DNA of 64,000 nucleotides from Escherichia phage CJY920: sequence record PQ349265.1; one strand, 5' to 3'. A program made the position numbers and the translations under genes. The notes below the pieces were generated by a model that was not told where the DNA came from, did no database searches, and saw only the letters and a list, made by a program, of their open reading frames with translations. Below, one piece after another: positions 2,196 through 24,640 of the stretch. Numbering within the stretch: the stretch's first letter is position 1; each line of letters begins with the position of its first letter.

Positions 2196-2852
2196 TTATT
2201 TAGCCCTTCCTAATATTCTGGCCGCCTGAGAACATATTGATTCAAGGCGGTCATTACTTATATGATCATTTCTATACCAGTACATGGTTATTGTTCCAGC
2301 ATAGATATTATCCAAATTGAAATATGGACAACTGTACATGTAATTTATTTCGGGAGTAGGCTTTTTAGTTGGTAAAAAAGCAAATTTTGAGTCGGAATAA
2401 TAATGACGTCCATTTAAATGAACTGTATATTCATCCATAGTTTTATCAACAGGATATCCTCCAAGTGATTTTTCGCTTATTGTTGAAGGTAATTTTCCTT
2501 CATATGCTATAATATCAACAAAATAGTTTAAGTTTTTAGGGCGGAAAGAATACACCGCACTAAAGTCTGCCTCAGATGATATATGAACTATCTGGAGTTG
2601 TTCCAGGGCGACAGATTCAAAGCGTGCATTTCTTTCCTTTTCAATAATTTCACTGTATGTTTCATACTTTGATTGCTTATAGTACTCAAAGAAACTATCT
2701 CCCCTATACCAAACAATCGCCATTATAAACAAAAGAATTACGACAGCTACCCGGGAAGCAAGAACTTTCCCGGTAGCGTTATCTTTGAACAAGCGATCTA
2801 GAACACCAAACAGAATATCAGAGGGCGAAAATGATATTCTAGGTGCTGCCAT
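2196..2852 (-). CDS. t: holin T (218 aa)
   Basis: Translation MAAPRISFSPSDILFGVLDRLFKDNATGK... with single N-terminal TM segment; 218 aa as in T4 t; downstream of gene 38. Confidence 0.9.
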   Translation of the reverse strand: MAAPRISFSPSDILFGVLDRLFKDNATGKVLASRVAVVILLFIMAIVWYRGDSFFEYYKQSKYETYSEIIEKERNARFESVALEQLQIVHISSEADFSAVYSFRPKNLNYFVDIIAYEGKLPSTISEKSLGGYPVDKTMDEYTVHLNGRHYYSDSKFAFLPTKKPTPEINYMYSCPYFNLDNIYAGTITMYWYRNDHISNDRLESICSQAARILGRAK

Positions 2853-2869
2853 AGACCCTCCTTTTAAGA

Positions 2870-2877
2870 TATTTATA
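2870..2877 (-). promoter_or_regulatory. late promoter TATAAATA for holin gene t, inside the 3' end of gene 38
   Basis: Plus-strand TATTTATA 18 nt upstream of the t start codon. Confidence 0.6.
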
Positions 2878-3424
2878 CGTAATGCTTGAATAAACGCTTA
2901 TACCAAGGCTTCTGTTCTTTTTCAGGCCATGAAGGGAATTCACCACCTAAATGCTCATGCTTTTCTAAAAGAGCAAAGAACCGCTTAAGGTTTTTATAAT
3001 AAAATTTTTCCTTTTTATTGGCGACAGAAGCTTCAATCATATTATTTAAAACTTGGAACTCTTTATATAATTCTTCAATTTTTCTATTACGAATTAAAAC
3101 TCGCTTATATGTTTCGTCTTCTTTCCAACCGTCATCAGTCCATATATCAAATTCGCCGGGCTCATCAAAAGTTATACCAACCGGGCTTCCAATGTCACTT
3201 ATAAAAATTTCTTCTTTATTAAAAGTCCATGCCCGTTTGCCGCGATGGTCTTCTTCATAAATCCAATCTTGAGTACGTTCATCAAATACAACCGCGTATC
3301 CTTCTTTAGGTTCTAAAGGTTTTTTAATTGTTGAATGAGCAGGAAGACCGAGGCCTTTAATCGGTTTGTAATTTTCTTCTTTGTAAAATTCTTTAGTGTC
3401 AAAATAATAATGATATATTTTCAT
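2873..3424 (-). CDS. 38: gp38 tail-fibre assembly chaperone (183 aa)
   Basis: 183 aa, directly after gene 37; preceded by the characteristic SD-hairpin-AUG split RBS. Confidence 0.85.
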   Translation of the reverse strand: MKIYHYYFDTKEFYKEENYKPIKGLGLPAHSTIKKPLEPKEGYAVVFDERTQDWIYEEDHRGKRAWTFNKEEIFISDIGSPVGITFDEPGEFDIWTDDGWKEDETYKRVLIRNRKIEELYKEFQVLNNMIEASVANKKEKFYYKNLKRFFALLEKHEHLGGEFPSWPEKEQKPWYKRLFKHYV

Positions 3425-3454: not shown

Positions 3455-6400
3455 TGCTAAACGAACGATATAGTTAAAAGCAATGTTTTTAACCGTGTTT
3501 TCTGTATTACCTGTACTATTTACAGTGATAGTATGACCGTGCGAACCAATTGCTACCGTGTGGGTATGGGCACCGATACCTACAGTATGGGTATGAGCAC
3601 CTATACCTACAGTATGAGCATGGTTACCGGTGGTGTTAGTTACACCTGTCCAAGTTCTTGATGCGTGGAAATCAACGGGAGCGCCATAAGTGAAGTTGGA
3701 ACCTGTGAAGCCGTGTGAAGCCTGACTACTACCCATCACGAACGCTCCACTCGCGGTGTAGAATGAACTATTATCACTTCTGAACCAACCAAACACACCA
3801 GAGATTTCCATGTTACCTCTATCGTGAGCGTGGTTTCCAGTAGTATTGGTCGCTTTAGTACCATAATCAAATGATGAAGAGGTTTTAGTACCATAATCAA
3901 AACTTGATGTGGTTTTAGTACCCAAATCAGTATTAGATGCAGAAGCACTATGATTATGAGACTTAATACCATCAGCTTCAGCACTCAACACTGCGCGACC
4001 GCTCGGTTTACCTTTGATAGTTTGCCCACGCATATCTGGAATAACACCACTAGGATATGCAACAGCTAACTTAGGATATGCAGACTTATCAAAGGTTTGG
4101 CCTTCCATTAAAGCAAACCCGTCAGGAACTGAATCGCTCGGCCACGGAATTGGAGCACCTACCGGATAAGGTATCTGAGCATCGGAATACATCTTATACA
4201 CTTGTCCAAGTACATGGTCTGCAGGTAATTCTTCTACCGGTGATTGAGATGCACCATTAAGACCGATTACCGAAATATTGCTAGTATTTTCTGTAGCATC
4301 ATATTCAACCAATAAAGATTGGGCAAAAGAGCCCATGTATATGTATACATCATAATCATTACCAGATGTATTCACTGTAGCAATGTTTGACGGGCTGGTA
4401 CTAGTGCTAGACCACAGCGCCGCATTAATAGATTTAGGATTATTGTTACCAGTTCTAAGAACAATTTCACTTATGGATGCTTGTTCAGGAGAATTAGCAT
4501 TATAACCATTCCCGCCGATAATTTTGAAACGCGCGGTAGATGTAGATTGTGGCATTGTTACAGTAGCAAATTTGTACCAGTACCAGCCTACTACTTTATC
4601 AACACCTGACCATGTGCCAACATTAACTTTGCGGTTTAATGTGGTATTCAAGTTAGCAAAGTTTCCTGAACCACCAGTGATATTACCGTCAGTTCCTAGT
4701 TTGGTATTTCCAACTTTAAGAGGCTTAGTAATATCGACAGTATCAGAGTTTAATGCAATGCCATGGGCGTAGGTGTAATTATGCATACGAACAATGTTTC
4801 CACCATCACCAATACCTACATACCATTTTGTAACATCTGCTTTGCGTCCTTGGATGAAGTTAGAAGACTCTTGTGTTGGAGCATTTATTCTAATAGCATC
4901 GGCGGCAGTATTAACTGTTATACGCTGAGATGCTGTAGTACCTGATGTATCTACTTTAAACTTGCCCACGCCAATATCAACAACGTGTTCCATAGAAACT
5001 GCGCCGGTGCCTAACTCAATACTAAACGGGCGAAGTGGACCGATATCGCCATGTTTACCTTCACCGTAAGCAGTTGGAATAATATGAAGACTGCCTTCTG
5101 AACGTCTAAAAATGGCTCCATAATCTGCGTTCCAAATGCGAAGACCATTTACAGCATTTGTCGCGATTTCACCGGCTGCGCTGATTGTACCGTCAAATGT
5201 AGCATTTTTTACTACTGTAAAGTTTTCATTAACAATCTGGGTGCCATTTATAACCGATTCGACTTTACCCGCAGTTGTTCGTTGAATATAGCTCATCCAA
5301 CTAGTTGCGTCAGAAATTTCCATGACATTTTTACGGGTGCCTTCACTAGGATTAGTAAAGGTATTACCCCAAACTTTGATTTCCACATTATCAACTGAAC
5401 TATAACCGCTTGTATTTCCTTTGAACAACAGCGTAGAAGCATTATTACGACCATCAATATTAACCGAACCACCAATAACGTCAATATTGCCTGGAGTAAC
5501 TAACAAACCGCCATGAGTATTAATGTTTGTGGTACCTTTACCACGGAAATAGTGATGATAATTACCGCCTTGATAATATCCTAAAAGAGTCTGACCGTCA
5601 CCATACGCGTTATTATCATGATAAGTGACAACCGTCGCCAAAGCATAGTTTTCCGACGGAGGAGTGGTTAAATCGGTACCGTTTACAGAATAACCCATAA
5701 CCATTTTTCTAAGACTGGTGGTTTCTGCCGGGCCACTCAGGAAAGTTCTTGTGCCGTTGTTTACACTAAAGAAATAACCATCTTGGTGCCATTGTAAGCC
5801 GGTATCATTATCGCCAAGAGCAATTGAAGCTGTTCCTAATTCAGAATATCCTTTAGGGCCGTGTGGAAGACCTACAGAAACAGAATGACCTGCTTTCAAT
5901 CCACCAGACCAAGTAAATGACCAAAGATAGGCGTCTAATCCATCGCCGGCATACCAGGTTATTCCATCATTATCTTTAACTTCATGGAATATACCCGCAC
6001 CTACGGCATTACGCATAACACGAAGATGATTAATAGCGGTTTCGCTTTCTGCCAATGGGGTGTTATTTGCTAATGAATAGATATCATAATCGCCTGTCTT
6101 CTTCCCATTTGTAATAACTTTATCGGTCAGAATTTGTGGAGACGAAATAGATTTCCATGCTGATACTTCAGGTGAAGTAAATAGGCCACTGCCTGAAAAT
6201 GCATAAGTGCTTTCGTTACCAGCGGCGTAGTCTTGAACGCGGATATTAACTACTTGTGTAGTTAATCCATCATTAGCCGGGGCATAAATGATTCCACGTT
6301 CGCGACTATTGCCATCGAAAAAACGAACATGCGCTGTACCTGAACTTTTTGTAATAAGTTCTCCGCCTTCGGTCATAATCTGCCCGGCGGCAATAATATC

Positions 6401-6688
6401 GCGAGTTACTCGAGCAATACCAGTTAAATTAAAATTACCTGTCTGAGTGAAGGTGCCATTTAAACTATAATCACCAGTTTGATTATAGTTTCCTATATGA
6501 ATAACATTCCCGTCAATACTACCGCCCTTAGCAAAACCAAGATCAATGATATTTCCTTGGTCGTCTTTAGTAAAAAGTACGCGGTCTTTTAAGTTTATAG
6601 CCAATTCACCTTCGGCTAATACTGAAGCGGCAGGACGTGCTCCTGCAGTTTTGCTTCTTTTAAATTGTATTTGTTTTAAAGTAGCCAT
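3452..6688 (-). CDS. 37: gp37 long tail fibre distal subunit (1078 aa)
   Basis: N-terminus [13 protein letters not shown]...; C-terminal His boxes ([16 protein letters not shown]); position between 36 and 38. Confidence 0.9.
3555..3615 (-). repeat. tandem ~27-bp repeats encoding the gp37 C-terminal His boxes
   Basis: GTGTGGGTATGGGCACCGATACCTACA / GTATGGGTATGAGCACCTATACCTACA, encoding repeated (A/S)HTHTVGIG units. Confidence 0.7.
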
Positions 6689-6696
6689 AAGTCCTC

Positions 6697-7353
6697 TTAA
6701 TAATAGCCGAAATCTTGAACAGAATCCTTAATAACAATTTGATCAAATCGTGGAACATGTGAGGGTTGAGATGCAGGATTCTGTGAAAAAAGGTTTGGCG
6801 CAGTTAAATTTCCTGTCATAGTATCTCCAGAGCGTAATACCCTAGAGTTTGCGTTTGCTGTAACAATATTTATTGCTCCATCAACATAATCTTTCCGTGT
6901 AAGGTCATAATTATTTACTGGAGATAATGAAGCTGCGCGTATTTGTGATGCTTCAATTACACCCTTTGAGCTAATATCTCCATTTCGCGTGTTAATTACT
7001 ACAGTTCTACCTGCTGTTCCTTGTGATGATTTAAAACCAATACCATGCCACGAAACAATATCCATATTTGTAGTATCATACGTGGCATTATCACCAGGAC
7101 CAGCAAAAATACCATTGTCACCTGACCCTGCACCAGGAACAGTCATTCCTTTATTAAAAATTACTTTATTTAAATACGTACCACCATTAGCTTTAGAAAC
7201 GAAATCGTTATCAGTAGCTTGTGGTTTATTATATTCTGAATATATTTTAAATGATTTATAGAGTACATCGTCACCGGCTGGATTCAATGGAAAATTTCCT
7301 TGATGCCAAATGACAGAGCCTCCAGTTGTTGAACCTACTTTTAAATCAGCCAT
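6697..7353 (-). CDS. 36: gp36 long tail fibre hinge subunit (218 aa)
   Basis: Size and position between genes 35 and 37; own late promoter upstream. Confidence 0.85.
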
Positions 7354-7376
7354 TGTATGCCCCTTTATTTTAATAG

Positions 7377-7410
7377 TATTTATAAAGAAAAAGGGAACCC
7401 GAAGGCTCCC
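7377..7410 (-). promoter_or_regulatory. terminator hairpin after gene 35 followed by late promoter TATAAATA for gene 36
   Basis: Minus-strand GGGAGCC-UUCG-GGUUCCC then UUUUUCUU then TATAAATA (7377-84). Confidence 0.65.
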
Positions 7411-7415
7411 TCAAT

Positions 7416-8531
7416 TTAAACTTCTCTAAATTCTTGCCCAAACACTTTACCAGTTTTAGACGATGCTTGCGTAGGAAGTACCATTATATCCGGAGGTGAA
7501 GCAGATTCACAGACATAATTAACTCGAATACCATTGACGCCAAATTCAGCAGGTTTTGAAATTCCGCCATTTCTTGATACTTCAGAAAAGCTTAAATTTC
7601 TCATGCCGCCTTGACCAGCTTGAGCAGTTCTTTGTGCATATATTGTAAATCCTACTGCGTTTTCTGGAATAACTACATAATCTTCCTTTAATTCCCATGA
7701 CCCAGCTTGTCCAGTAAACTCAGCATGTGTTGAAGAAATATATCCATTCGATTCATCATAAAAACGGATAGATATATTTGTAGTTCCAAGCGCAAGTAAA
7801 TCGGCATCAGCATATAACTGTGCTTTAAGATAAAGAACATCGCCAGGAATTAAATTATAATCAGATAATTTACTTATCGCGGATGAAGTTGGTAAACGTG
7901 CAATTTCGTTATTAGTTCCACCAACCGCTGACATAAATTGCTCAACGCTTTCATATGTTCTTTTAGGAAATCCTGTAGCTCCAACGTCTTCTAAACTATC
8001 AAATACAACATCTAAAATAGTTTGATAATCATCTGTGCTTTTTCTATTGCTTAATTTAACATGTTCTAATGCAATAGCTCTTTTAGAAGAAGTGTAAAAA
8101 GCAGCATATGATACGTCAAATCTTGACAATATAAAATCAGATGGAAAAGCAGACGTTCCTGTGGCTCTTAGCCAAGATACTACCTCAGGAGGAAAATTAA
8201 CCTTTCCACTAGTTAATATAGCAACAAGTCTATTATTCGTCAAAGAGTTCATGAAACCAACAAAAGCAGCTGATGTAGTATCATTTGAAGTCGAAAAAGC
8301 ATATGACTTACTATCAACTAATGCTCCTGTAGAAGGGTCAAAAACTCTTAAATGAAGACCTGTATTAAATGTTTGGCTTCCGATAGGATTATCCTGAAAT
8401 TTGACATATGGTCCTGCTGTAGAAAGCGGGCAAGAACCCGCTATACTTATTTTGTATCTTACTGAATTACTTTCCGATAAAAATGGCGTTTGGACATATC
8501 CTTGTCCAAACTCTGCCATAAATTTTTCCAT
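7416..8531 (-). CDS. 35: gp35 long tail fibre hinge connector (371 aa)
   Basis: Size and position between 34 and 36. Confidence 0.85.
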   Translation of the reverse strand: MEKFMAEFGQGYVQTPFLSESNSVRYKISIAGSCPLSTAGPYVKFQDNPIGSQTFNTGLHLRVFDPSTGALVDSKSYAFSTSNDTTSAAFVGFMNSLTNNRLVAILTSGKVNFPPEVVSWLRATGTSAFPSDFILSRFDVSYAAFYTSSKRAIALEHVKLSNRKSTDDYQTILDVVFDSLEDVGATGFPKRTYESVEQFMSAVGGTNNEIARLPTSSAISKLSDYNLIPGDVLYLKAQLYADADLLALGTTNISIRFYDESNGYISSTHAEFTGQAGSWELKEDYVVIPENAVGFTIYAQRTAQAGQGGMRNLSFSEVSRNGGISKPAEFGVNGIRVNYVCESASPPDIMVLPTQASSKTGKVFGQEFREV

Positions 8532-16797: not shown

Positions 16798-18172
<1,375 letters not shown>

Positions 18173-18426
18173 TAATTGAGGCCTGAGTATAAGGTGACTT
18201 ATACTTGTAATCTATCTAAACGGGGAACCTCTCTAGTAGACAATCCCGTGCTAAATGTTCTTTTGAACTAAATGCCTAACGACTATCCCTTTGGGGAGTA
18301 GGGTCAAGTGACTCGAAACGATAGACAACTTGCTTTAACAAGTTGGAGATATAGTCTGATCTGCATGGTGACATGCAGCTGGATATAATTCCGGGGTAAG
18401 ATTAACGACCTTATCTGAACATAATG
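18173..18426 (+). ncRNA. group I self-splicing intron in td, ORF-less (about 254 nt)
   Basis: Starts TAATTGAGGCCTGAG..., contains core GTAGGGTCAAGTGACTCGAAA and GATATAGTCTGATCTGCATGG, ends ...CTGAACATAATG; no ORF inside. Confidence 0.8.
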
Positions 18427-18738
18427 CTTCCATTTAATATTGCATCATATGCTGCGTTAGTTCATATTGTAGCTAAGATGTGTAATCTTATTCCAGGAGA
18501 TTTGATATTTTCTGGCGGTAATACTCATATCTATATGAATCACGTAGAACAATGTAAAGAAATTTTGCGTCGTGAACCTAAAGAGCTTTGTGAACTGGTA
18601 ATAGGCGGATTGCCTTATAAATTCCGCTATCTTTCTACTAAAGAACAATTGGAATATGTTCTTAAACTCAGGCCTAAAGATTTCGTTCTTAAAGGTTACG
18701 AATCACACCCTCCTATTAAAGGAAAAATGGCGGTGTAA
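18427..18738 (+). CDS. td: thymidylate synthase, exon 2 (103 codons)
   Basis: LPFNIASYAALVHIVAKMCNLIPGDLIFSGGNTHIYMNH... continues ThyA; exon 1 + exon 2 = 286 aa. Confidence 0.9.
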   Translation, partial: LPFNIASYAALVHIVAKMCNLIPGDLIFSGGNTHIYMNHVEQCKEILRREPKELCELVIGGLPYKFRYLSTKEQLEYVLKLRPKDFVLKGYESHPPIKGKMAV

Positions 18739-18761
18739 TTAATTATTAATTGTGAGGATAT

Positions 18762-19007
18762 ATGATTTTACGATTTAAAGATACTTCTGGTGTCGTTCTT
18801 TTTACACTTCCTAATCCAAGTGAGTTAGAAGTTCCAGGACCAAATCAGCCTATTATCATTTATGGCAAAAAATATTATACTCATAAAATGACTCGTGAGT
18901 ATTTTGATAATAAAATTTCTACGGTTAAAACTTCTTCAGATTGTTATTATGATATTACTGTTTTAACGGAAAAACAATATGACGAATGCAGAACTTTAGC
19001 AGTATAA
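18762..19007 (+). CDS. hypothetical protein (81 aa)
   Basis: ATG ORF; its 3' end overlaps the 3' end of the antisense GIY-YIG gene by 12 bp. Confidence 0.4.
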
Positions 19008-19727
19008 ATATGATTCCCAGCAATCTAGAGCGCATCTTTTAGATATAAGTTTTCTGCTTATTCCGGTTTGACGCACAGCTTCTGCTATTGTTGGATATTC
19101 TACCCCATCTATACTTACTCTTAGATGGGGTTTCTTTTTACCTCTTTGTGAGTCAGAAATTCGTTTTCTAACTTCATTGGTATGTGTCTGTCCATAATAT
19201 GGATTATTGATGCCTTTCATATTAAGTGCAGCGTTTCTTTCTTGGAACTTTTTGCTTATTTCTATAGCACGATCTAACCCATAGTGTTCTTCTATAGTTT
19301 TACCTTTGATATCTCTAGGTCTACCATGTTTTTGCTTAAGTTCTTCTGGTGATAATTTTGAATTATTATTTTTAATTGCATTTGAAATTTTATTAAGGAT
19401 TTCTTGCTTTCTTGGGTGATGAGATAAGGTATCCCCAAATGATGCGTCTGCTATATTATACCCATTTTCCTTTGAGTCATATTCATGCATCCAATAATTT
19501 TCACGTTCAATAATGATAGATTTTTCGTATGGAAGTTCTTCTATGATTTTACATACGAAAGCATCTTTCCCATGCTTATTATAAGAACGCTGCAGCTTTA
19601 TTGAATGATGATTTCCATTATCTAAATCTTTAAAGTGTCGTTTCCATCGTTCTTCAAAATTAATTGCACTTCCTATATAGTGCTTATTAGTTTTAGTGTT
19701 TATAATAGCATATATTCCAGATTTCAT
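18996..19727 (-). CDS. GIY-YIG homing endonuclease, I-TevI-like catalytic domain (243 aa), free-standing and antisense
   Basis: N-terminus [35 protein letters not shown]... closely resembles the I-TevI GIY-YIG domain as recalled; C-terminal HTH-like [21 protein letters not shown]; own TATAAATA and AGGAGA upstream. Confidence 0.8.
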
Positions 19728-19749
19728 TATATTCTCCTATATAAAATTA

Positions 19750-19757
19750 TATTTATA
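19750..19757 (-). promoter_or_regulatory. late promoter TATAAATA for the GIY-YIG endonuclease gene
   Basis: Plus-strand TATTTATA is TATAAATA on the minus strand, about 22 nt upstream of the ATG. Confidence 0.6.
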
Positions 19758-19782
19758 TGGGGTAACTTACGACAGAGGACTT

Positions 19783-22047
19783 ATGCAATTAATTAATGTT
19801 ATCAAAAGTAGTGGTGTTTCTCAGAGCTTTGACCCGCAAAAAATTATTAAAGTTTTATCTTGGGCAGCTGAAGGAACATCTGTAGATCCTTATGAATTAT
19901 ATGAAAATATTAAATCATATCTCCGTGATGGAATGACAACTGATGACATTCAAACCATTGTAATTAAGGCTGCTGCGAATTCTATTTCAGTTGAAGAGCC
20001 TGATTATCAATACGTAGCTGCACGCTGTTTAATGTTTGCTCTTCGTAAACACGTGTACGGACAGTATGAGCCCCGTTCATTTATTGACCATATTTCTTAC
20101 TGTGTAAATGAAGGTAAATACGACCCTGAACTGTTGTCAAAATATTCAGCAGAAGAAATTACATTTTTAGAATCAAAAATTAAGCACGAACGGGATATGG
20201 AATTTACTTATTCCGGGGCGATGCAATTAAAAGAAAAATATCTCGTTAAAGATAAAACCACTGGTCAAATTTATGAAACTCCACAGTTTGCATTTATGAC
20301 TATTGGAATGGCATTGCATCAAGATGAACCTGTTGACAGATTAAAACATGTTATTCGTTTTTATGAAGCAGTATCTACTCGACAGATTTCATTGCCAACT
20401 CCTATTATGGCTGGTTGTCGTACTCCGACTCGGCAATTTAGTTCATGCGTTGTTATTGAGGCAGGTGATTCGCTGAAGTCTATCAACAAAGCTTCTGCTT
20501 CAATTGTTGAGTATATTTCTAAACGAGCCGGAATCGGCATTAACGTTGGTATGATTCGTGCCGAAGGTTCTAAGATTGGCACAGGTGAAGTACGCCATAC
20601 TGGTGTTATTCCTTTTTGGAAACATTTTCAGACTGCTGTTAAATCATGCTCACAGGGTGGAATTCGTGGCGGCGCTGCTACTGCTTATTATCCTATTTGG
20701 CATTTGGAAGTTGAAAATCTTCTCGTTTTGAAAAATAACAAAGGCGTAGAAGAAAACCGTATCCGTCATATGGATTATGGTGTCCAGCTGAATGATTTGA
20801 TGATGGAACGTTTTGGAAAGAACGATTACATTACTTTGTTTAGTCCACATGAAATGGGTGGCGAACTTTATTATTCTTATTTTAAAGACCAAGACCGTTT
20901 CCGTGAATTATACGAAGCTGCAGAAAAAGACCCTAATATTCGTAAAAAGCGCATTAAAGCCCGTGAACTGTTTGAATTGCTCATGACTGAACGCTCAGGA
21001 ACAGCAAGGATTTATGTACAGTTCATTGATAATACGAATAACTATACTCCATTTATTCGTGAAAAGGCACCTATTCGTCAGAGTAACTTGTGCTGTGAAA
21101 TTGCTATTCCAACAAATGATGTGAATGGACCTGACGCTGAAGTGGGCCTCTGCACTCTTTCTGCCTTTGTTCTTGATAACTTCGATTGGCAAGACCAAGA
21201 TAAAATTAATGAATTAGCAGAAGTCCAAGTTCGCGCTCTTGATAATCTTTTGGATTACCAAGGATATCCAGTTCCTGAAGCAGAAAAAGCTAAAAAGCGT
21301 CGAAATCTTGGTGTAGGTGTTACTAACTATGCAGCTTGGCTGGCAAGTAACTTTGCTTCTTATGAAGATGCTAACGATTTAACACATGAACTATTTGAGA
21401 GATTACAGTATGGGCTCATTAAAGCATCCATTAAGCTCGCCAAAGAAAAAGGACCTTGCGAATATTATTCAGACACTCGTTGGTCTCGAGACGAATTACC
21501 TATCGACTGGTACAATAAAAAGATTGACCAAATCGCAGCTCCAAAATACGTTTGTGACTGGTCGTCGCTGCGGGAAGACCTTAAGCTCTTTGGCATCCGT
21601 AATAGCACATTATCAGCACTTATGCCATGTGAGTCATCTTCCCAAGTTTCTAACAGTACAAACGGTATCGAGCCTCCACGTGGACCAGTCTCGGTTAAAG
21701 AATCAAAAGAGGGTTCCTTTAATCAAGTCGTGCCCAATATTGAACATAACATAGACCTCTATGATTATACATGGAAATTAGCTAAGAAAGGTAATAAACC
21801 TTATCTTACGCAGGTAGCTATTATGCTTAAATGGGTATGTCAATCAGCTTCAGCGAATACATATTATGACCCGCAGATTTTTCCAAAAGGAAAGGTTCCA
21901 ATGTCTGTAATGATTGATGACATGCTATACGGATGGTATTATGGCATTAAAAACTTCTATTATCATAATACTCGTGATGGTTCCGGTACTGATGATTACG
22001 AAATAGAAACTCCAAAAGCTGAAGATTGTTCATCCTGTAAATTATGA
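19783..22047 (+). CDS. nrdA: ribonucleotide reductase large subunit (754 aa)
   Basis: From ATG 19783 (SD GAGGA): MQLINVIKSSGVSQSFDPQKI...; class Ia RNR alpha motifs; the ORF-track N-terminal extension from 19696 is rejected. Confidence 0.9.
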   Translation: MQLINVIKSSGVSQSFDPQKIIKVLSWAAEGTSVDPYELYENIKSYLRDGMTTDDIQTIVIKAAANSISVEEPDYQYVAARCLMFALRKHVYGQYEPRSFIDHISYCVNEGKYDPELLSKYSAEEITFLESKIKHERDMEFTYSGAMQLKEKYLVKDKTTGQIYETPQFAFMTIGMALHQDEPVDRLKHVIRFYEAVSTRQISLPTPIMAGCRTPTRQFSSCVVIEAGDSLKSINKASASIVEYISKRAGIGINVGMIRAEGSKIGTGEVRHTGVIPFWKHFQTAVKSCSQGGIRGGAATAYYPIWHLEVENLLVLKNNKGVEENRIRHMDYGVQLNDLMMERFGKNDYITLFSPHEMGGELYYSYFKDQDRFRELYEAAEKDPNIRKKRIKARELFELLMTERSGTARIYVQFIDNTNNYTPFIREKAPIRQSNLCCEIAIPTNDVNGPDAEVGLCTLSAFVLDNFDWQDQDKINELAEVQVRALDNLLDYQGYPVPEAEKAKKRRNLGVGVTNYAAWLASNFASYEDANDLTHELFERLQYGLIKASIKLAKEKGPCEYYSDTRWSRDELPIDWYNKKIDQIAAPKYVCDWSSLREDLKLFGIRNSTLSALMPCESSSQVSNSTNGIEPPRGPVSVKESKEGSFNQVVPNIEHNIDLYDYTWKLAKKGNKPYLTQVAIMLKWVCQSASANTYYDPQIFPKGKVPMSVMIDDMLYGWYYGIKNFYYHNTRDGSGTDDYEIETPKAEDCSSCKL

Positions 22048-22063
22048 TATAATTACCACAAGG

Positions 22064-23656
22064 ATGTGGTTAACTAAGAATAACGCTATGTTTGATAATA
22101 TATACAAAAACGGAAAGTTTCTTCCATTTGGAGAAGAAAAACTTAAATCTAGACTAACAGAAGAAGATAAAGCTCTTCTAACTGATGGAATAGATTTTAA
22201 GCTCAATGTGTTCCAAATTATGGAAGGCATTGACATTAACGATCTAAAATGTGCAGTTTGTGGAAATTTCATTTCTCTGAAAACAGCAAAGAAACGTGTA
22301 TTTCCAGCAACATGTAGTAAATCCTGCTCAGGGATATTTTTCGCGGATAAGAGAATTCAAAGCCGTGATACAAATTTTGGCGGAAAAGAAAAATATAAAA
22401 AATATTTGTCTGAACTTCAACACAAAAATTCTTTAGAAAAATATGGAACAACTCATCAAAAAATTTCAAGAAATAAAAATAGAAAAACTTTAATTGAACG
22501 ATATGGGGTAACGCATAATTCACAATTAGAAAGTGTGAAAGAAGCGAGAAAAGTTATAGAAAACGGTAAATCAGTTGATATTCTGAATTCTAAAAAATCT
22601 CGCGAAAAATCTAAGAAGACTAAATTAAATTGGACTGAAGAATATAAGGCATCGTTATATTCATCTATAGGAAAATCTATTAAAAATAACGGTCATATTA
22701 ATCATGATATACTAGATAAAATCAATTACAAAATTTCTATAGAAGAACTACAACAATTAGCAAATTGTTCTCGGATGACGGCTTATAGAGCTCTTTCATC
22801 CAAAGGACTAATTGACGTTCATTATACTCAAAGTTCTATAGAGCAATTCATTTTAGATCTAGGATTTGATTGCGTAGAAACTAGAAAAATTATTCCTCCG
22901 TATGAATTAGATATTTACATTCCTGAGAAAAAATTGGCTATAGAATACGATGGAATTTATTGGCATTCTAGCGGGTCAAAGGAAACAGATAAAATTAAAG
23001 AAACTTATCATTTGATGAAGACAGAGATGTGTGAAGCACAAGGAATTCAATTACTTCACATCTTCGAAAATGAATGGATTGATGATACAAAAAGAGAGAT
23101 CTGGAAATCCATTATAAAGCATAAATTAGGATTATCAGAAAGAATACCAGCCCGAAAATGCAAAGCACGGTTTGTTAATAAGGATGAGGCAAAAGAATTT
23201 ATTAATAAGAATCATCTTCAAGGATTTTGCTCAGGAGCTCATACGTATAAAGGACTTTATTACAATAATGAGTTAGTTCAAATTATTTCTATCGGTAAAT
23301 CTAGATATAGCTCAGGTGATGAACTTTTAAGGATGTGTTCAAAATTAGGGGTTTGTGTTGTAGGAGGAGCCTCAAAATTATTAAAAGGAATTAATTGTCT
23401 ATCTTATGGCAATCGAAGATGGTGCAGTACATTATCAAATGTTTATGACTCTGTCATGGAATTTAGTCATATCTCTGAGCCATGTTATTGGTACGTCGAT
23501 AAAGGAGAGGTATTTCACCGCTCAAGCTATATGAAACATAAGCTTAAAAACAAGCTTAAAAATTATGATGATACAATAACTGAAGTAGAAAATTGTTATG
23601 CAAATGGTCTTAGAAGAATCTGGGACTGTGGAAATTTAGTTTACAGGACAAAATAA
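22064..23656 (+). CDS. putative free-standing homing endonuclease (530 aa): zinc-finger-like N-terminus, tandem YG-TH repeats, Vsr/DUF559-like nuclease core
   Basis: Cys cluster CAVCGNF...CSKSCSG; repeats EKYGTTHQKIS / ERYGVTHNSQ; core PYELDIYIPEKKLAIEYDGIYWHS...GIQLLHIFENEW resembles DUF559/Vsr-type PD-(D/E)xK nucleases; sits at the nrdA-nrdB position where T4 has mobE. Confidence 0.55.
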   Translation: MWLTKNNAMFDNIYKNGKFLPFGEEKLKSRLTEEDKALLTDGIDFKLNVFQIMEGIDINDLKCAVCGNFISLKTAKKRVFPATCSKSCSGIFFADKRIQSRDTNFGGKEKYKKYLSELQHKNSLEKYGTTHQKISRNKNRKTLIERYGVTHNSQLESVKEARKVIENGKSVDILNSKKSREKSKKTKLNWTEEYKASLYSSIGKSIKNNGHINHDILDKINYKISIEELQQLANCSRMTAYRALSSKGLIDVHYTQSSIEQFILDLGFDCVETRKIIPPYELDIYIPEKKLAIEYDGIYWHSSGSKETDKIKETYHLMKTEMCEAQGIQLLHIFENEWIDDTKREIWKSIIKHKLGLSERIPARKCKARFVNKDEAKEFINKNHLQGFCSGAHTYKGLYYNNELVQIISIGKSRYSSGDELLRMCSKLGVCVVGGASKLLKGINCLSYGNRRWCSTLSNVYDSVMEFSHISEPCYWYVDKGEVFHRSSYMKHKLKNKLKNYDDTITEVENCYANGLRRIWDCGNLVYRTK

Positions 23657-24331: not shown

Positions 24332-24640
24332 AAAATGCGCCTTTAAGCAGTAATGCTTATCGAAAACTCCTTTAATTGCTGGAAAATCCAGAAATGGAAA
24401 ACTAGCAGCCAAGGTTTTGCTTGCACCTTTAATTAGTATCATATTATAAATATGATTATACTTTTAAGAGGATGCACAATTGCAAAGCAAGGTTCAACGA
24501 CTAGTCTTCGGACGTAGGGTCAAGCGACTCGAAATGGGGAGAATCCCTCTGGGATTGTGATATAGTCTGGTCTGCATAGTAATATGTAGCAGTTCATAAG
24601 AGAACGGGTTGAGAATTAGCGAGCTCAATCGAACATAACG
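24332..24640 (+). ncRNA. group I self-splicing intron in nrdB, ORF-less (about 309 nt; boundaries within a few nt)
   Basis: Core GTAGGGTCAAGCGACTCGAAA and GATATAGTCTGGTCTGCAT paralogous to the td intron core; ends ...GAACATAACG; no ORF inside. Confidence 0.7.

Follow-up and report, generated by a model that had tools for sequence, protein, structure and literature searches.

A well-known relative of the endonuclease described here is I-TevI, the GIY-YIG enzyme encoded within the td intron of phage T4, whose catalytic domain (PDB 1MK0, 1LN0) is followed by a linker and a DNA-binding domain (1I3J) in which a NUMOD3 minor-groove helix precedes a helix-turn-helix. A zinc finger (CxC...CxxC) in the linker is the distance determinant of the enzyme. 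I-BmoI, encoded in the thyA intron of Bacillus mojavensis, targets thymidylate synthase at the site homologous to that of I-TevI and is not known to have a zinc finger. Three NUMOD3 repeats are predicted for it (PMC3664794).

Other homing endonuclease genes (HEGs) of T4 are free-standing; SegA–SegG lie in gaps between conserved nucleotide-metabolism genes and are patchily present among close relatives. SegF, SegG and MobE cut inside a neighboring conserved gene, and weakly cut their own genome as well. Free-standing T4 HEGs spread by intronless homing, with co-conversion of up to ~2 kb (PMC2988022, PMC2790892), and in the trans homing of MobE/I-TevIII (Wilson & Edgell 2009, PMC2790892), as in collaborative homing, the HEG lies within that ~2-kb range of an intron without a working endonuclease.

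Here we analyze a locus of Escherichia phage CJY920 (PQ349265.1; the 64,000-nt stretch analyzed is referred to hereafter as the window) in which a free-standing GIY-YIG gene lies close to an ORF-less td intron, an arrangement that the first-pass annotation had taken for a snapshot of HEG mobility between intron-borne and free-standing states. We find instead an I-TevI paralogue on a minimal cassette that has recently been exchanged between phage genera, and whose presence is independent of the state of the td intron.

Results

Layout of the td–nrdA region

In the window, the thymidylate synthase gene td comprises a divergent, IME08-type exon 1 (17624-18172, plus strand), a 254-nt group I intron (18173-18426, plus strand, boundaries set by alignment to intronless td genes) and a T4-type exon 2 (18427-18738, plus strand). 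The intron matches Rfam Intron_gpI over the whole model (75.7 bits, gathering score 50) and the ORF list holds no frame of at least 40 aa inside it, a 13-nt hairpin (GTTCTTTTGAACT) standing in place of the 774-nt segment that includes I-TevI; the intron called empty at first pass is thus a genuine ORF-less group I intron. The window has a second pair of this kind elsewhere, an ORF-less nrdB intron with a Hef-like gene next to it.

Downstream of td lie nrdA.2 (DUF5496, 81 aa; 18762-19007, plus strand) and the ribonucleotide reductase gene nrdA (19783-22047, plus strand), and between these two an ORF of 243 aa with an ATG start runs on the minus strand (18996-19727), its 3′ end overlapping that of nrdA.2 by 12 nt, tail to tail. 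The ORF lies outside the td intron, on the opposite strand and 570 bp downstream of the intron insertion site. The antisense placement between td and nrdA given by the annotation therefore stands, with the refinement that the gene is flanked by nrdA.2 and nrdA, td not being its immediate neighbor.

An intact GIY-YIG endonuclease without a zinc finger

The minus-strand GIY-YIG ORF is present and intact as originally called. Its product matches Pfam GIY-YIG (E = 7e-15). In a phmmer search of the PDB, residues 1-98 (nt 19434-19727, minus strand) align with the catalytic domain of I-TevI (1MK0/1LN0, E = 1e-39) and residues 156-239 with its DNA-binding domain (1I3J, E = 2.8e-7). As with I-TevI, the NCBIfam subfamily is TIGR01453, ‘group I intron endonuclease’, which the product matches at full length (residues 2-240, profile positions 1-210 of 215; 128.5 bits, cut-off 56.05). 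After residue 98 and before the NUMOD3 motifs comes an I-TevI-type linker whose start is conserved, followed by two NUMOD3 motifs (~residues 134-150 and ~171-191; Pfam, 28 bits against a cut-off of 20.4) and a C-terminal helix-turn-helix (~residues 201-238), all read from the minus strand; the order is that of I-TevI, which has one NUMOD3 where this protein has two. Pfam I-TevI_DNA-bd scores 21.4 bits, under its curated cut-off of 27, and we therefore regard the helix-turn-helix as a divergent, weakly I-TevI-type element. The zinc finger of I-TevI is absent: the linker contains zero cysteines, and Pfam I-TevI_ZnF matches I-TevI (63 bits) but not this protein. In domain layout (GIY-YIG, I-TevI-like linker, several NUMOD3) the enzyme may be likened to I-BmoI, from which it differs in that I-BmoI is intron-encoded. 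A single-sequence AlphaFold2 model (mean pLDDT 40.5, pTM 0.22) was unusable.

The annotation had allowed that catalytic residues might prove missing on alignment, or that the gene might be a frameshifted fragment. Arg27 and Glu75 (the positions mutated in 1MK0/1LN0) are both retained, as are the GIY and YIG tyrosines and Asn90 on alignment to I-TevI, such that all known catalytic residues are present; the 11 orthologues that we read are all intact, 243 aa long and without frameshift, and the fragment reading was discarded. Values of dN/dS against the Klebsiella orthologues of KpV477 (0.10) and KP179 (0.11) are low, and remain ~0.1 in the DNA-binding half. The gene is thus intact and under purifying selection.

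Relationship to I-TevI and other enzymes

Identity to I-TevI is 46% overall, 68-69% in the catalytic domain and ~27% in the remainder, bearing out the claim of an I-TevI-like N-terminal domain joined to a different DNA-binding region of NUMOD3 and helix-turn-helix type. Similarity at the DNA level is limited to ~67% over 330 nt, with none beyond. The C-terminal YRVKSDKWNWFYINA signature of I-TevI is missing; as this accompanies a DNA-binding part only ~27% identical, a target differing from that of I-TevI is to be expected. The recognition-helix region differs both from that of I-TevI and from that of the intron-borne Aes508 enzyme. Given a catalytic domain 69% identical, a remainder at 27% and no zinc finger, the endonuclease is, as judged by sequence, an old I-TevI paralogue and not a relocated I-TevI.

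A protein-level search of phage records returned, outside the gene's own orthologues, I-TevI genes and relatives from Acinetobacter phages as best matches, and by sequence no Seg protein comes nearly as close to it as I-TevI does. The Acinetobacter-phage proteins (AbTZA1, Meroveus and AB1I1M-1; 45-51% identity overall) occupy the same antisense slot after td and before nrdA, lack a zinc finger, carry two or three NUMOD3 repeats and a helix-turn-helix with a common ‘RC’ motif, and in 2 of 3 cases have TATAAATA upstream. In AB1I1M-1, the HEG coexists with an nrdA.1-like gene, so its target may differ. These relatives are annotated variously as ‘hypothetical protein’, ‘putative intron endonuclease’ and ‘GIY-YIG endonuclease’.

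The two halves of I-TevI itself show discordant similarities, of the kind a module swap could leave: its catalytic domain is 75% identical to that of AbTZA1 and 58% to that of the Aes508 enzyme, whereas in its DNA-binding half identity is 41% to Aes508 and 27-35% to the free-standing proteins.

A minimal cassette exchanged between genera

Identity breaks against HEG-minus alleles delimit an inserted cassette of ~790 bp (18988-19777), made up of the ORF and its 50-nt leader. On the left, identity to the HEG-minus phage ZJUN4 ends at 18987 and the sequence common to Klebsiella copies begins at 18995, the intervening 18988-18994 being a junction filler (GCAGAAC); on the right, identity to ZJUN4 returns at ~19775-19778, at the nrdA Shine-Dalgarno and start (GAGGACTTATGCAA), which forms the junction in E. 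coli and Klebsiella phages alike. The cassette replaces nrdA.1 and the final codons of nrdA.2, whose C-terminus is rewritten by the insertion (81 aa in the window, 87 aa in HEG-minus phages). HEG-minus alleles in both genera hold nrdA.1 (DUF4326) at the same place. KP179 has 301 additional bp separating the HEG from nrdA; a reading of these as an nrdA.1 remnant was rejected, since they encode an unrelated 79-aa ORF.

The boundaries are also sharp between genera. Copies from E. coli and Klebsiella phages are 85-100% identical within 18995-19777, and identity just outside drops to 65-80%, equal to that with a HEG-minus E. coli phage; no Klebsiella-type sequence beyond the cassette, that is, no co-conversion tract, is visible in the E. 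coli flanks. Klebsiella phage KP179 shares the 5′ half of the cassette and the promoter at 100% identity (dS = 0.018). Among the eight HEG-plus Tequatroviruses, mean pairwise difference is 0.0097 in the cassette against 0.037-0.076 in the td exon 2, nrdA.2 and nrdA flanks, a diversity 4-8 times lower that indicates recent spread into diverse backgrounds. E. coli phages and Klebsiella phages, members of different genera, have recently exchanged the cassette, which was imported as a single unit also present in Jiaodavirus phages, whose td is intronless.

Leader and promoter

The leader (19728-19777, minus strand) contains a T4 late-promoter motif, TATAAATA (19750-19757, minus strand), and a Shine-Dalgarno sequence, AGGAG (19734-19738, minus strand), in agreement with the late promoter and ribosome-binding site first proposed for the gene; I-TevI likewise has a late-promoter motif upstream. 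Because TATAAATA occurs 21 times in the window against 9.6 expected, a lone match is not proof of a promoter; the motif is also kept, at -26 to -35 from the ATG, by divergent relatives that do not conserve the sequence around it. A plus-strand copy of TATAAATA lies at 19003-19010. The leader is 97-100% identical to the Klebsiella copies, identity ending at 19777. A scan of 18400-20000 for sigma-70 promoters and terminators gave nothing above shuffle expectation. We would expect transcription solely late in infection, from the gene's own TATAAATA promoter, and the resulting transcript would oppose the early/middle frd–td–nrdA transcripts.

Adjoining the promoter, TGGGGTAACTTACG (19759-19772, plus strand) resembles a conserved nrdA.1 block. 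Local alignment of the 50-nt promoter/leader with the nrdA.1 region of the HEG-minus phages ZJUN4 and KP185 did not rise above the null (300 shuffles, fraction at or above observed 0.06-0.89); the best plus-strand match coincides with the most conserved nrdA.1 block, a similarity that is not significant on its own. We regard the likeness of TGGGGTAACTTACG to nrdA.1 as an unproven lead toward a candidate operator.

Presence of the gene is independent of the td intron

Carriage is patchy: 8 of ~520 Tequatrovirus-type records matching the flank (~1.5%) and ~18 of ~131 Jiaodavirus records (~14%) have the gene. Free-standing between conserved genes and patchy among close relatives, it shows the distribution typical of a HEG. 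Four of the HEG-plus Tequatroviruses (sutha, TB004, RPN226 and LH2) retain full I-TevI in the td intron, two (N2 and the phage of the window) have an ORF-less intron, and two (ECO07P5 and Ozark) have intronless td, as do all Klebsiella Jiaodavirus copies examined. Conversely, ~36 database records have a td intron that is ORF-less or holds only an I-TevI remnant, and nearly all of these are without this HEG. Association between HEG and intron state was not significant (Fisher p = 0.13-0.44, from approximate counts), and gene presence is independent of td intron state. Two parts of the original reading find no support: that the gene, found alike with an I-TevI intron, an ORF-less intron and no intron, is a snapshot of passage between intron-borne and free-standing states, and that it is causally tied to the empty intron, against which stand these counts, the ~27% identity outside the catalytic domain and the Acinetobacter-phage relatives in the same slot. 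The empty td intron is an independent product of I-TevI loss.

A proposed route of homing

We consider it probable that the ORF is an active free-standing HEG of the I-TevI/TIGR01453 GIY-YIG subfamily, carried on the minimal ~790-bp cassette. By homology to I-TevI and I-BmoI, the protein should act as a monomer; its NUMOD3 helices and helix-turn-helix would hold it on an extended asymmetric site, after which the tethered GIY-YIG domain would nick the two strands at a short distance from that site. As the zinc-finger ‘ruler’ is absent, the spacing between site and cut probably differs from that of I-TevI. We infer that, when a related HEG-minus phage infects the same cell, its td–nrdA region would be cut by the enzyme, and repair off the HEG-carrying genome would copy the cassette in, replacing nrdA.1. 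The expected spread is thus intronless homing with marker exclusion, by double-strand-break repair as for SegF/SegG (PMC2988022). The gene here differs from SegA–SegG in being antisense to its neighbors, in having a dedicated late-promoter motif, and in replacing nrdA.1 rather than being simply inserted.

The target would most likely be found within the displaced nrdA.1 sequence, on its border or where nrdA.1 meets nrdA. In this replaced segment, E. coli and Klebsiella phages share three conserved blocks, namely TGGGGAAATTACGTCGGTAAAGAT, CCATGGTGATATAATAGCTC and, at the nrdA.1/nrdA junction, GAGGACTTATGCAA. Across 561 nt of left flank and 1123 nt of right flank, no position separates HEG-plus (8) from HEG-minus (5) phages, which suggests that self-immunity would come from absence of the replaced segment. 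The lack of HEG-linked polymorphisms does not prove a target in nrdA.1, since SegF, SegG and MobE cut conserved neighbors and, weakly, their own genomes. In the published literature, we found no description of this gene, nor cleavage, homing or transcript data for its protein.

Discussion

Several other explanations deserve consideration alongside an active, autonomously homing HEG. Proximity to an intron lacking its endonuclease invites comparison with MobE/I-TevIII (PMC2790892, PMC2988022): the gene is within 2 kb of such an intron, ~570 bp separates the intron insertion site from the cassette, and the Hef-like gene with its nrdB intron offers a second pair in the window. Collaborative or trans homing, in which the free-standing HEG would work together with the ORF-less td intron, is nonetheless unlikely. 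Were the enzyme to cut at the insertion site, ECO07P5, Ozark and KpV477, which have the HEG but an intronless td, would themselves bear its target, and around that site a single difference in 75 nt distinguishes KpV477 from the HEG-minus KP185; the helix-turn-helix is without the YRVKSxKWNWxYINA signature common to the two intron-borne enzymes of that site, and unlike in the MobE and collaborative cases the HEG is not linked statistically to intron state, an ORF-less intron accompanying it in 2 of 8 Tequatroviruses and in none of the Klebsiella copies examined. The insertion site thus does not appear a plausible target, and any mobilization of the intron would be incidental; passive hitch-hiking by co-conversion is possible, yet explains nothing otherwise unexplained, and the td intron at most hitch-hikes occasionally in this way. 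Still harder to credit is that the gene is I-TevI itself, or a direct descendant, after leaving (or about to enter) the td intron, with the empty intron part of one recent event. The catalytic domain at 69% identity (E = 1e-39), the 570 bp between gene and ORF-lacking intron and the TIGR01453 ‘group I intron endonuclease’ match could be taken to favor such descent, to which we give almost no credence when the intron of four HEG-plus phages still encodes full I-TevI, td is intronless in two further HEG-plus phages of E. coli and in the examined Klebsiella copies, ORF-less or remnant introns are common without the gene, the cassette came as a unit common to intronless-td Jiaodavirus phages, the non-catalytic part is 27% identical and without the zinc finger, and DNA similarity stops at ~67% over 330 nt.

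Two further readings concern activity. The strong purifying selection, a slot and orientation kept across several genera, and promoter-adjacent sequence faintly like the conserved nrdA.1 block might point to domestication, either as a regulator that binds DNA but leaves it uncut (the behavior of I-TevI on its operator) or as a means of attacking rival phages or host DNA, PADLOC indeed having GIY-YIG homing-endonuclease-like models among its candidate defense proteins. We think this quite improbable, given that carriage of ~1.5% and ~14% is unlike that of a useful core function, that a cassette varying so little among diverse backgrounds and moving between genera speaks for selfish spread, and that the operator resemblance is not significant. 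PADLOC itself returned only generic homing-endonuclease models and weak UzuA matches on the GIY-YIG domain, and a defense-system assignment was rejected. That the gene is an inactive relic, decaying and no longer cutting or moving, is very improbable: HEGs often degenerate once fixed, and the neighboring I-TevI was lost in this same genome, with a series of remnants in the database, but here all catalytic residues are present, no truncated or frameshifted copies were seen, dN/dS is ~0.1 with the DNA-binding half included, and the segment recently exchanged across genera is 100% identical.

An active free-standing HEG remains our preferred interpretation, and can be extended, speculatively and with a good deal of doubt on our part, to the origin of I-TevI. 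The zinc-finger-less, antisense td–nrdA enzymes of Tequatrovirus, Jiaodavirus and Acinetobacter phages may be a free-standing sister or ancestral lineage of I-TevI, which would have been born when such a td-adjacent catalytic domain and linker gained a zinc-finger DNA-binding module and entered the td intron; in addition, next to its own late promoter the present enzyme may find an operator-like copy of its nrdA.1 target and bind it, just as I-TevI binds its operator, and from time to time it may carry the ORF-less td intron along.

The endonuclease is an ordinary, previously uncharacterized member of a known HEG class, and the attractive story must be dropped: the empty td intron and the nearby HEG are independent. 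What replaces it is an I-TevI paralogue defined with a clean minimal cassette of ~790 bp, for which database labels such as ‘endonuclease I-TevI’ and ‘intron-associated endonuclease 1’ mislead. I-TevI-type nuclease domains and linkers serve in engineered genome-editing nucleases, where a close natural variant whose linker has no zinc-finger ruler might have some use. Transfer of the cassette between phage genera only ~70-75% identical in flanking genes is clear and recent, and the same slot is in use across two subfamilies of T4-like phages; the locus is thus a good natural case of free-standing HEGs crossing genus barriers and of recombination between catalytic and DNA-binding modules. If the enzymes of this slot do prove a sister or ancestral lineage of I-TevI, they would make a tractable natural system in which to follow the assembly of mobile introns.

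An antisense relative of I-TevI between nrdA.2 and nrdA

The window is a Tequatrovirus (T4-like) segment with the order gene 32, frd, td, nrdA.2, endonuclease gene, nrdA, Hef-like gene, nrdB, denA; its nearest database genomes at the endonuclease region are Shigella phage TB004 and Escherichia phages sutha, RPN226, LH2, ECO07P5, N2, and Ozark (97.6–98.5% DNA identity). The endonuclease ORF (18996–19727, minus strand, 243 aa) lies between td and nrdA, as the first-pass annotation placed it, but is not td-adjacent, its true neighbors being nrdA.2 (DUF5496) and nrdA. Over its full length the protein matches NCBIfam TIGR01453 “group I intron endonuclease” (128.5 bits, cut-off 56 bits), and it also matches Pfam GIY-YIG (7e-15) and NUMOD3 (in two stretches), with a weak I-TevI_DNA-bd match (21.4 bits, below the 27-bit cut-off). 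A search of solved structures pairs residues 1–98 with the catalytic domain of I-TevI, the endonuclease of the T4 td intron (1MK0, 1LN0; E = 1e-39), and residues 156–239 with its DNA-binding domain (1I3J; E = 2.8e-7). No catalytic residue is missing (GIY, YIG, N90, and R27 and E75, the residues mutated in 1MK0/1LN0, are all kept), and no frameshifted fragment is seen, all 11 orthologues examined being intact at 243 aa.

Alignment bears out the earlier reading of an I-TevI-like catalytic domain joined to a different DNA-binding region: I-TevI is 69% identical to the window protein in the catalytic domain and 27% in the rest (61–72% and 34–39%, respectively, for the Acinetobacter relatives AbTZA1, Meroveus, and AB1I1M-1). 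I-TevI and the Aeromonas phage Aes508 enzyme, both borne by the td intron, have in common a zinc finger and a C-terminal YRVKSxK(W/Y)NWxYINA signature. No zinc finger occurs in the window protein, in its orthologues from Klebsiella phages, or in the three relatives from Acinetobacter phages, and Pfam I-TevI_ZnF is matched by I-TevI alone. The proteins without the finger carry two to three NUMOD3 repeats and their own helix-turn-helix with an “RC” motif, and all occupy one slot, 3′ of td and 5′ of nrdA on the opposite strand. These features together mark them as a lineage of their own, conserved in its slot. I-TevI is the closest characterized protein, yet the window gene departs from I-TevI proper in two defining respects, having neither the intron location nor the zinc finger; judged by its sequence, the window protein is an old I-TevI paralogue, not I-TevI, and in lifestyle it resembles T4's free-standing seg/mob genes. 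The catalytic domain of I-TevI is nearest to the free-standing Acinetobacter-phage enzymes and its DNA-binding half to the intron-borne Aes508 enzyme; these discordant similarities leave room for an origin of I-TevI by module swap from this free-standing lineage resident beside td, an origin we consider improbable.

The endonuclease gene and the empty td intron are independent

The td intron (18173–18426, plus strand, 254 nt, ends from alignment to intronless td genes) is real and ORF-less, as first described: it matches Rfam Intron_gpI over the full model (75.7 bits), and no ORF lies inside it. A stretch of 774 nt that includes I-TevI is replaced by a 13-nt hairpin, GTTCTTTTGAACT (18257–18269, plus strand), whose self-complementary GTTC/GAAC neatly caps the loop; the final I-TevI codons are retained because they form part of the intron core.

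The juxtaposition had been read as a snapshot of a gene moving between intron-borne and free-standing states. Examination of the td region in every Tequatrovirus record carrying the gene (HEG-plus, for homing endonuclease gene; eight phages) does not support this, since the gene occurs with all three td states: full I-TevI in the intron (sutha, TB004, RPN226, LH2), an ORF-less intron (N2, window), and an intronless td (ECO07P5, Ozark). In the Klebsiella phages KpV477 and KP179 (Jiaodavirus; two loci examined in full), an intronless td abuts the gene, and the remaining Jiaodavirus copies have the same td-to-nrdA span. Conversely, ~36 database records have a td intron without full I-TevI, either fully empty or with remnants of ~65 or ~190 nt that form a degeneration series, and nearly all lack the window endonuclease gene; association between gene and intron state is not significant (p = 0.13–0.44, approximate counts). 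The td states, the records lacking the gene, and the hairpin replacement therefore place the window's empty intron in a series of I-TevI loss, not in an event of the endonuclease “moving out”; endonuclease gene and empty intron are independent.

The intron also coincides with a recombination boundary, since td exon 1 (17624–18172, plus strand) is a foreign allele (100% identical to ECO07P1 and ECO07P3, 90–95% to IME08/IME341-type phages, and only 75–80% to the td genes of the compared T4-type and intronless Tequatroviruses), whereas intron and exon 2 match sutha's T4-type copy at 97–100% identity. A Hef-like homing endonuclease gene in the nrdA–nrdB gap (22064–23656, plus strand, 530 aa; PHROG 3339, 3e-151; annotated “Hef-like” in N2; missing in sutha, ZJUN4, ECO07P5, and TB004) adjoins an ORF-less group I intron of nrdB (~24332–24640, plus strand, ~309 nt; Rfam 71.7 bits), so the window holds two separate pairs of free-standing HEG and empty intron. 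In RPN226 (4584–7752 of its locus), an HNH endonuclease gene is inserted in nrdA, giving two ORFs.

A sharply bounded cassette exchanged between genera

In phages without the gene (HEG-minus), nrdA.1 (DUF4326) holds the cassette's place in both genera (for example, E. coli phages ZJUN4, EP01, EcNP1, W143, and RB6; Klebsiella phages KP185 and JD18). Identity between window and ZJUN4 is 98–100% through 18987 and returns from ~19775; the stretch shared with Klebsiella phages runs from the stop codon (18995) to 19777, comprising the ORF and a 50-nt leader and nothing more. Within it, identity to Klebsiella phages is 85–100%, against 65–80% directly outside, where it is no higher than for a HEG-minus E. 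coli phage. The right junction is GAGGACTTATGCAA, the 14-nt nrdA ribosome-binding site and start, identical in both genera; the left differs (td stop in Klebsiella phages, nrdA.2 codon ~76 in E. coli phages), with microhomology of a few bases only. Insertion has rewritten the C-terminus of nrdA.2 (18762–19007, plus strand), which ends ...DECRTLAV in the window and ...DELSPRGPSMPSSE in HEG-minus phages; the nrdA.2 protein therefore tolerates another tail.

The 5′ half of the gene and its promoter are 100% identical to KP179 (dS = 0.018) whereas the 3′ half has diverged (dS ~0.5), which points to recent cross-genus exchange. Copies in Klebsiella phages differ far more among themselves (dS 0.36) than those in E. 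coli phages (0.04–0.05); from this dS we infer the direction, which suggests Jiaodavirus as the older host lineage. KP179 has an extra 301 bp between endonuclease promoter and nrdA (2700–3000 of its locus) with a 79-aa ORF of unassigned function, unrelated in sequence to nrdA.1. Pairwise comparison of the eight HEG-plus Tequatroviruses gives a mean difference of 0.0097 in the cassette versus 0.037–0.076 in td exon 2, nrdA.2, and nrdA; dN/dS is ~0.1 overall (0.09–0.12 in linker and DNA-binding part), and the gene occurs in 8 of ~520 flank-matching Tequatrovirus-type records and ~18 of ~131 Jiaodavirus records. Boundaries, exchange, low diversity, dN/dS, and patchiness look like the hallmarks of an active, selfish HEG.

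Predicted expression, mechanism, and target

The gene has its own ribosome-binding motif (AGGAG, 19734–19738, minus strand) and T4 late-promoter motif (TATAAATA, 19750–19757, minus strand) before the ATG, as the first-pass annotation held. A single TATAAATA is weak evidence because the window has 21 matches versus 9.6 expected by chance; the motif is, however, kept 26–35 nt 5′ of the ATG in the Klebsiella copies, two Acinetobacter-phage relatives, and the intron-borne Aeromonas relative, within otherwise unrelated sequence. Being antisense, the gene cannot be expressed by early/middle read-through from td; its putative late promoter would be the only source of expression, matching the late expression of I-TevI (PMC2988022). 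A second TATAAATA (19003–19010, plus strand), kept in the Klebsiella copies, overlaps the endonuclease stop codon and, if functional, would start late transcripts that run against the endonuclease gene and on into nrdA. Adjoining the late promoter, TGGGGTAACTTACG (19759–19772, plus strand) resembles the most conserved nrdA.1 block of HEG-minus phages, TGGGGAAATTACG, a likeness that recalls the I-TevI operator but is not statistically significant on its own.

By homology, the protein would work like I-TevI and I-BmoI, whose binding and cutting model (PMC2988022, PMC3664794) we adopt: anchored on an extended asymmetric site by its C-terminal modules, the enzyme would nick each strand close by with its tethered GIY-YIG domain, and repair from the HEG-plus genome would copy the cassette into the cut genome, as in intronless homing, where co-conversion reaches up to ~2 kb (PMC2790892). 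The divergent recognition region predicts a target other than that of I-TevI. The insertion site of the td intron is unlikely to be that target because intronless HEG-plus phages keep it (KpV477 and HEG-minus KP185 differ at 1 of 75 nt). Across 561 nt of left and 1123 nt of right flank, no position distinguishes HEG-plus (eight) from HEG-minus (five) phages, so self-protection is best explained by a target within the nrdA.1 segment that the cassette replaces or spanning the nrdA.1–nrdA junction, where we infer the cut position. Three blocks of this segment (TGGGGAAATTACGTCGGTAAAGAT, CCATGGTGATATAATAGCTC, and GAGGACTTATGCAA) are identical in the HEG-minus alleles of E. coli and Klebsiella phages, and, as we read the segment's sequence, CNNNG motifs lie near them; the I-TevI cleavage motif is CNNNG, given as 5′-CXXXG-3′ (PMC2988022).

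No description of this gene was found in the literature. Database labels include “homing endonuclease”, “GIY-YIG nuclease family protein”, and “endonuclease I-TevI / intron-associated endonuclease 1”, the last of which is wrong. The free-standing antisense I-TevI-like gene by an ORF-less td intron is confirmed as an observation, and is an uncharacterized addition to a known class: as its sequence reads, an ordinary but neat free-standing HEG with evidence of recent between-genera transfer.
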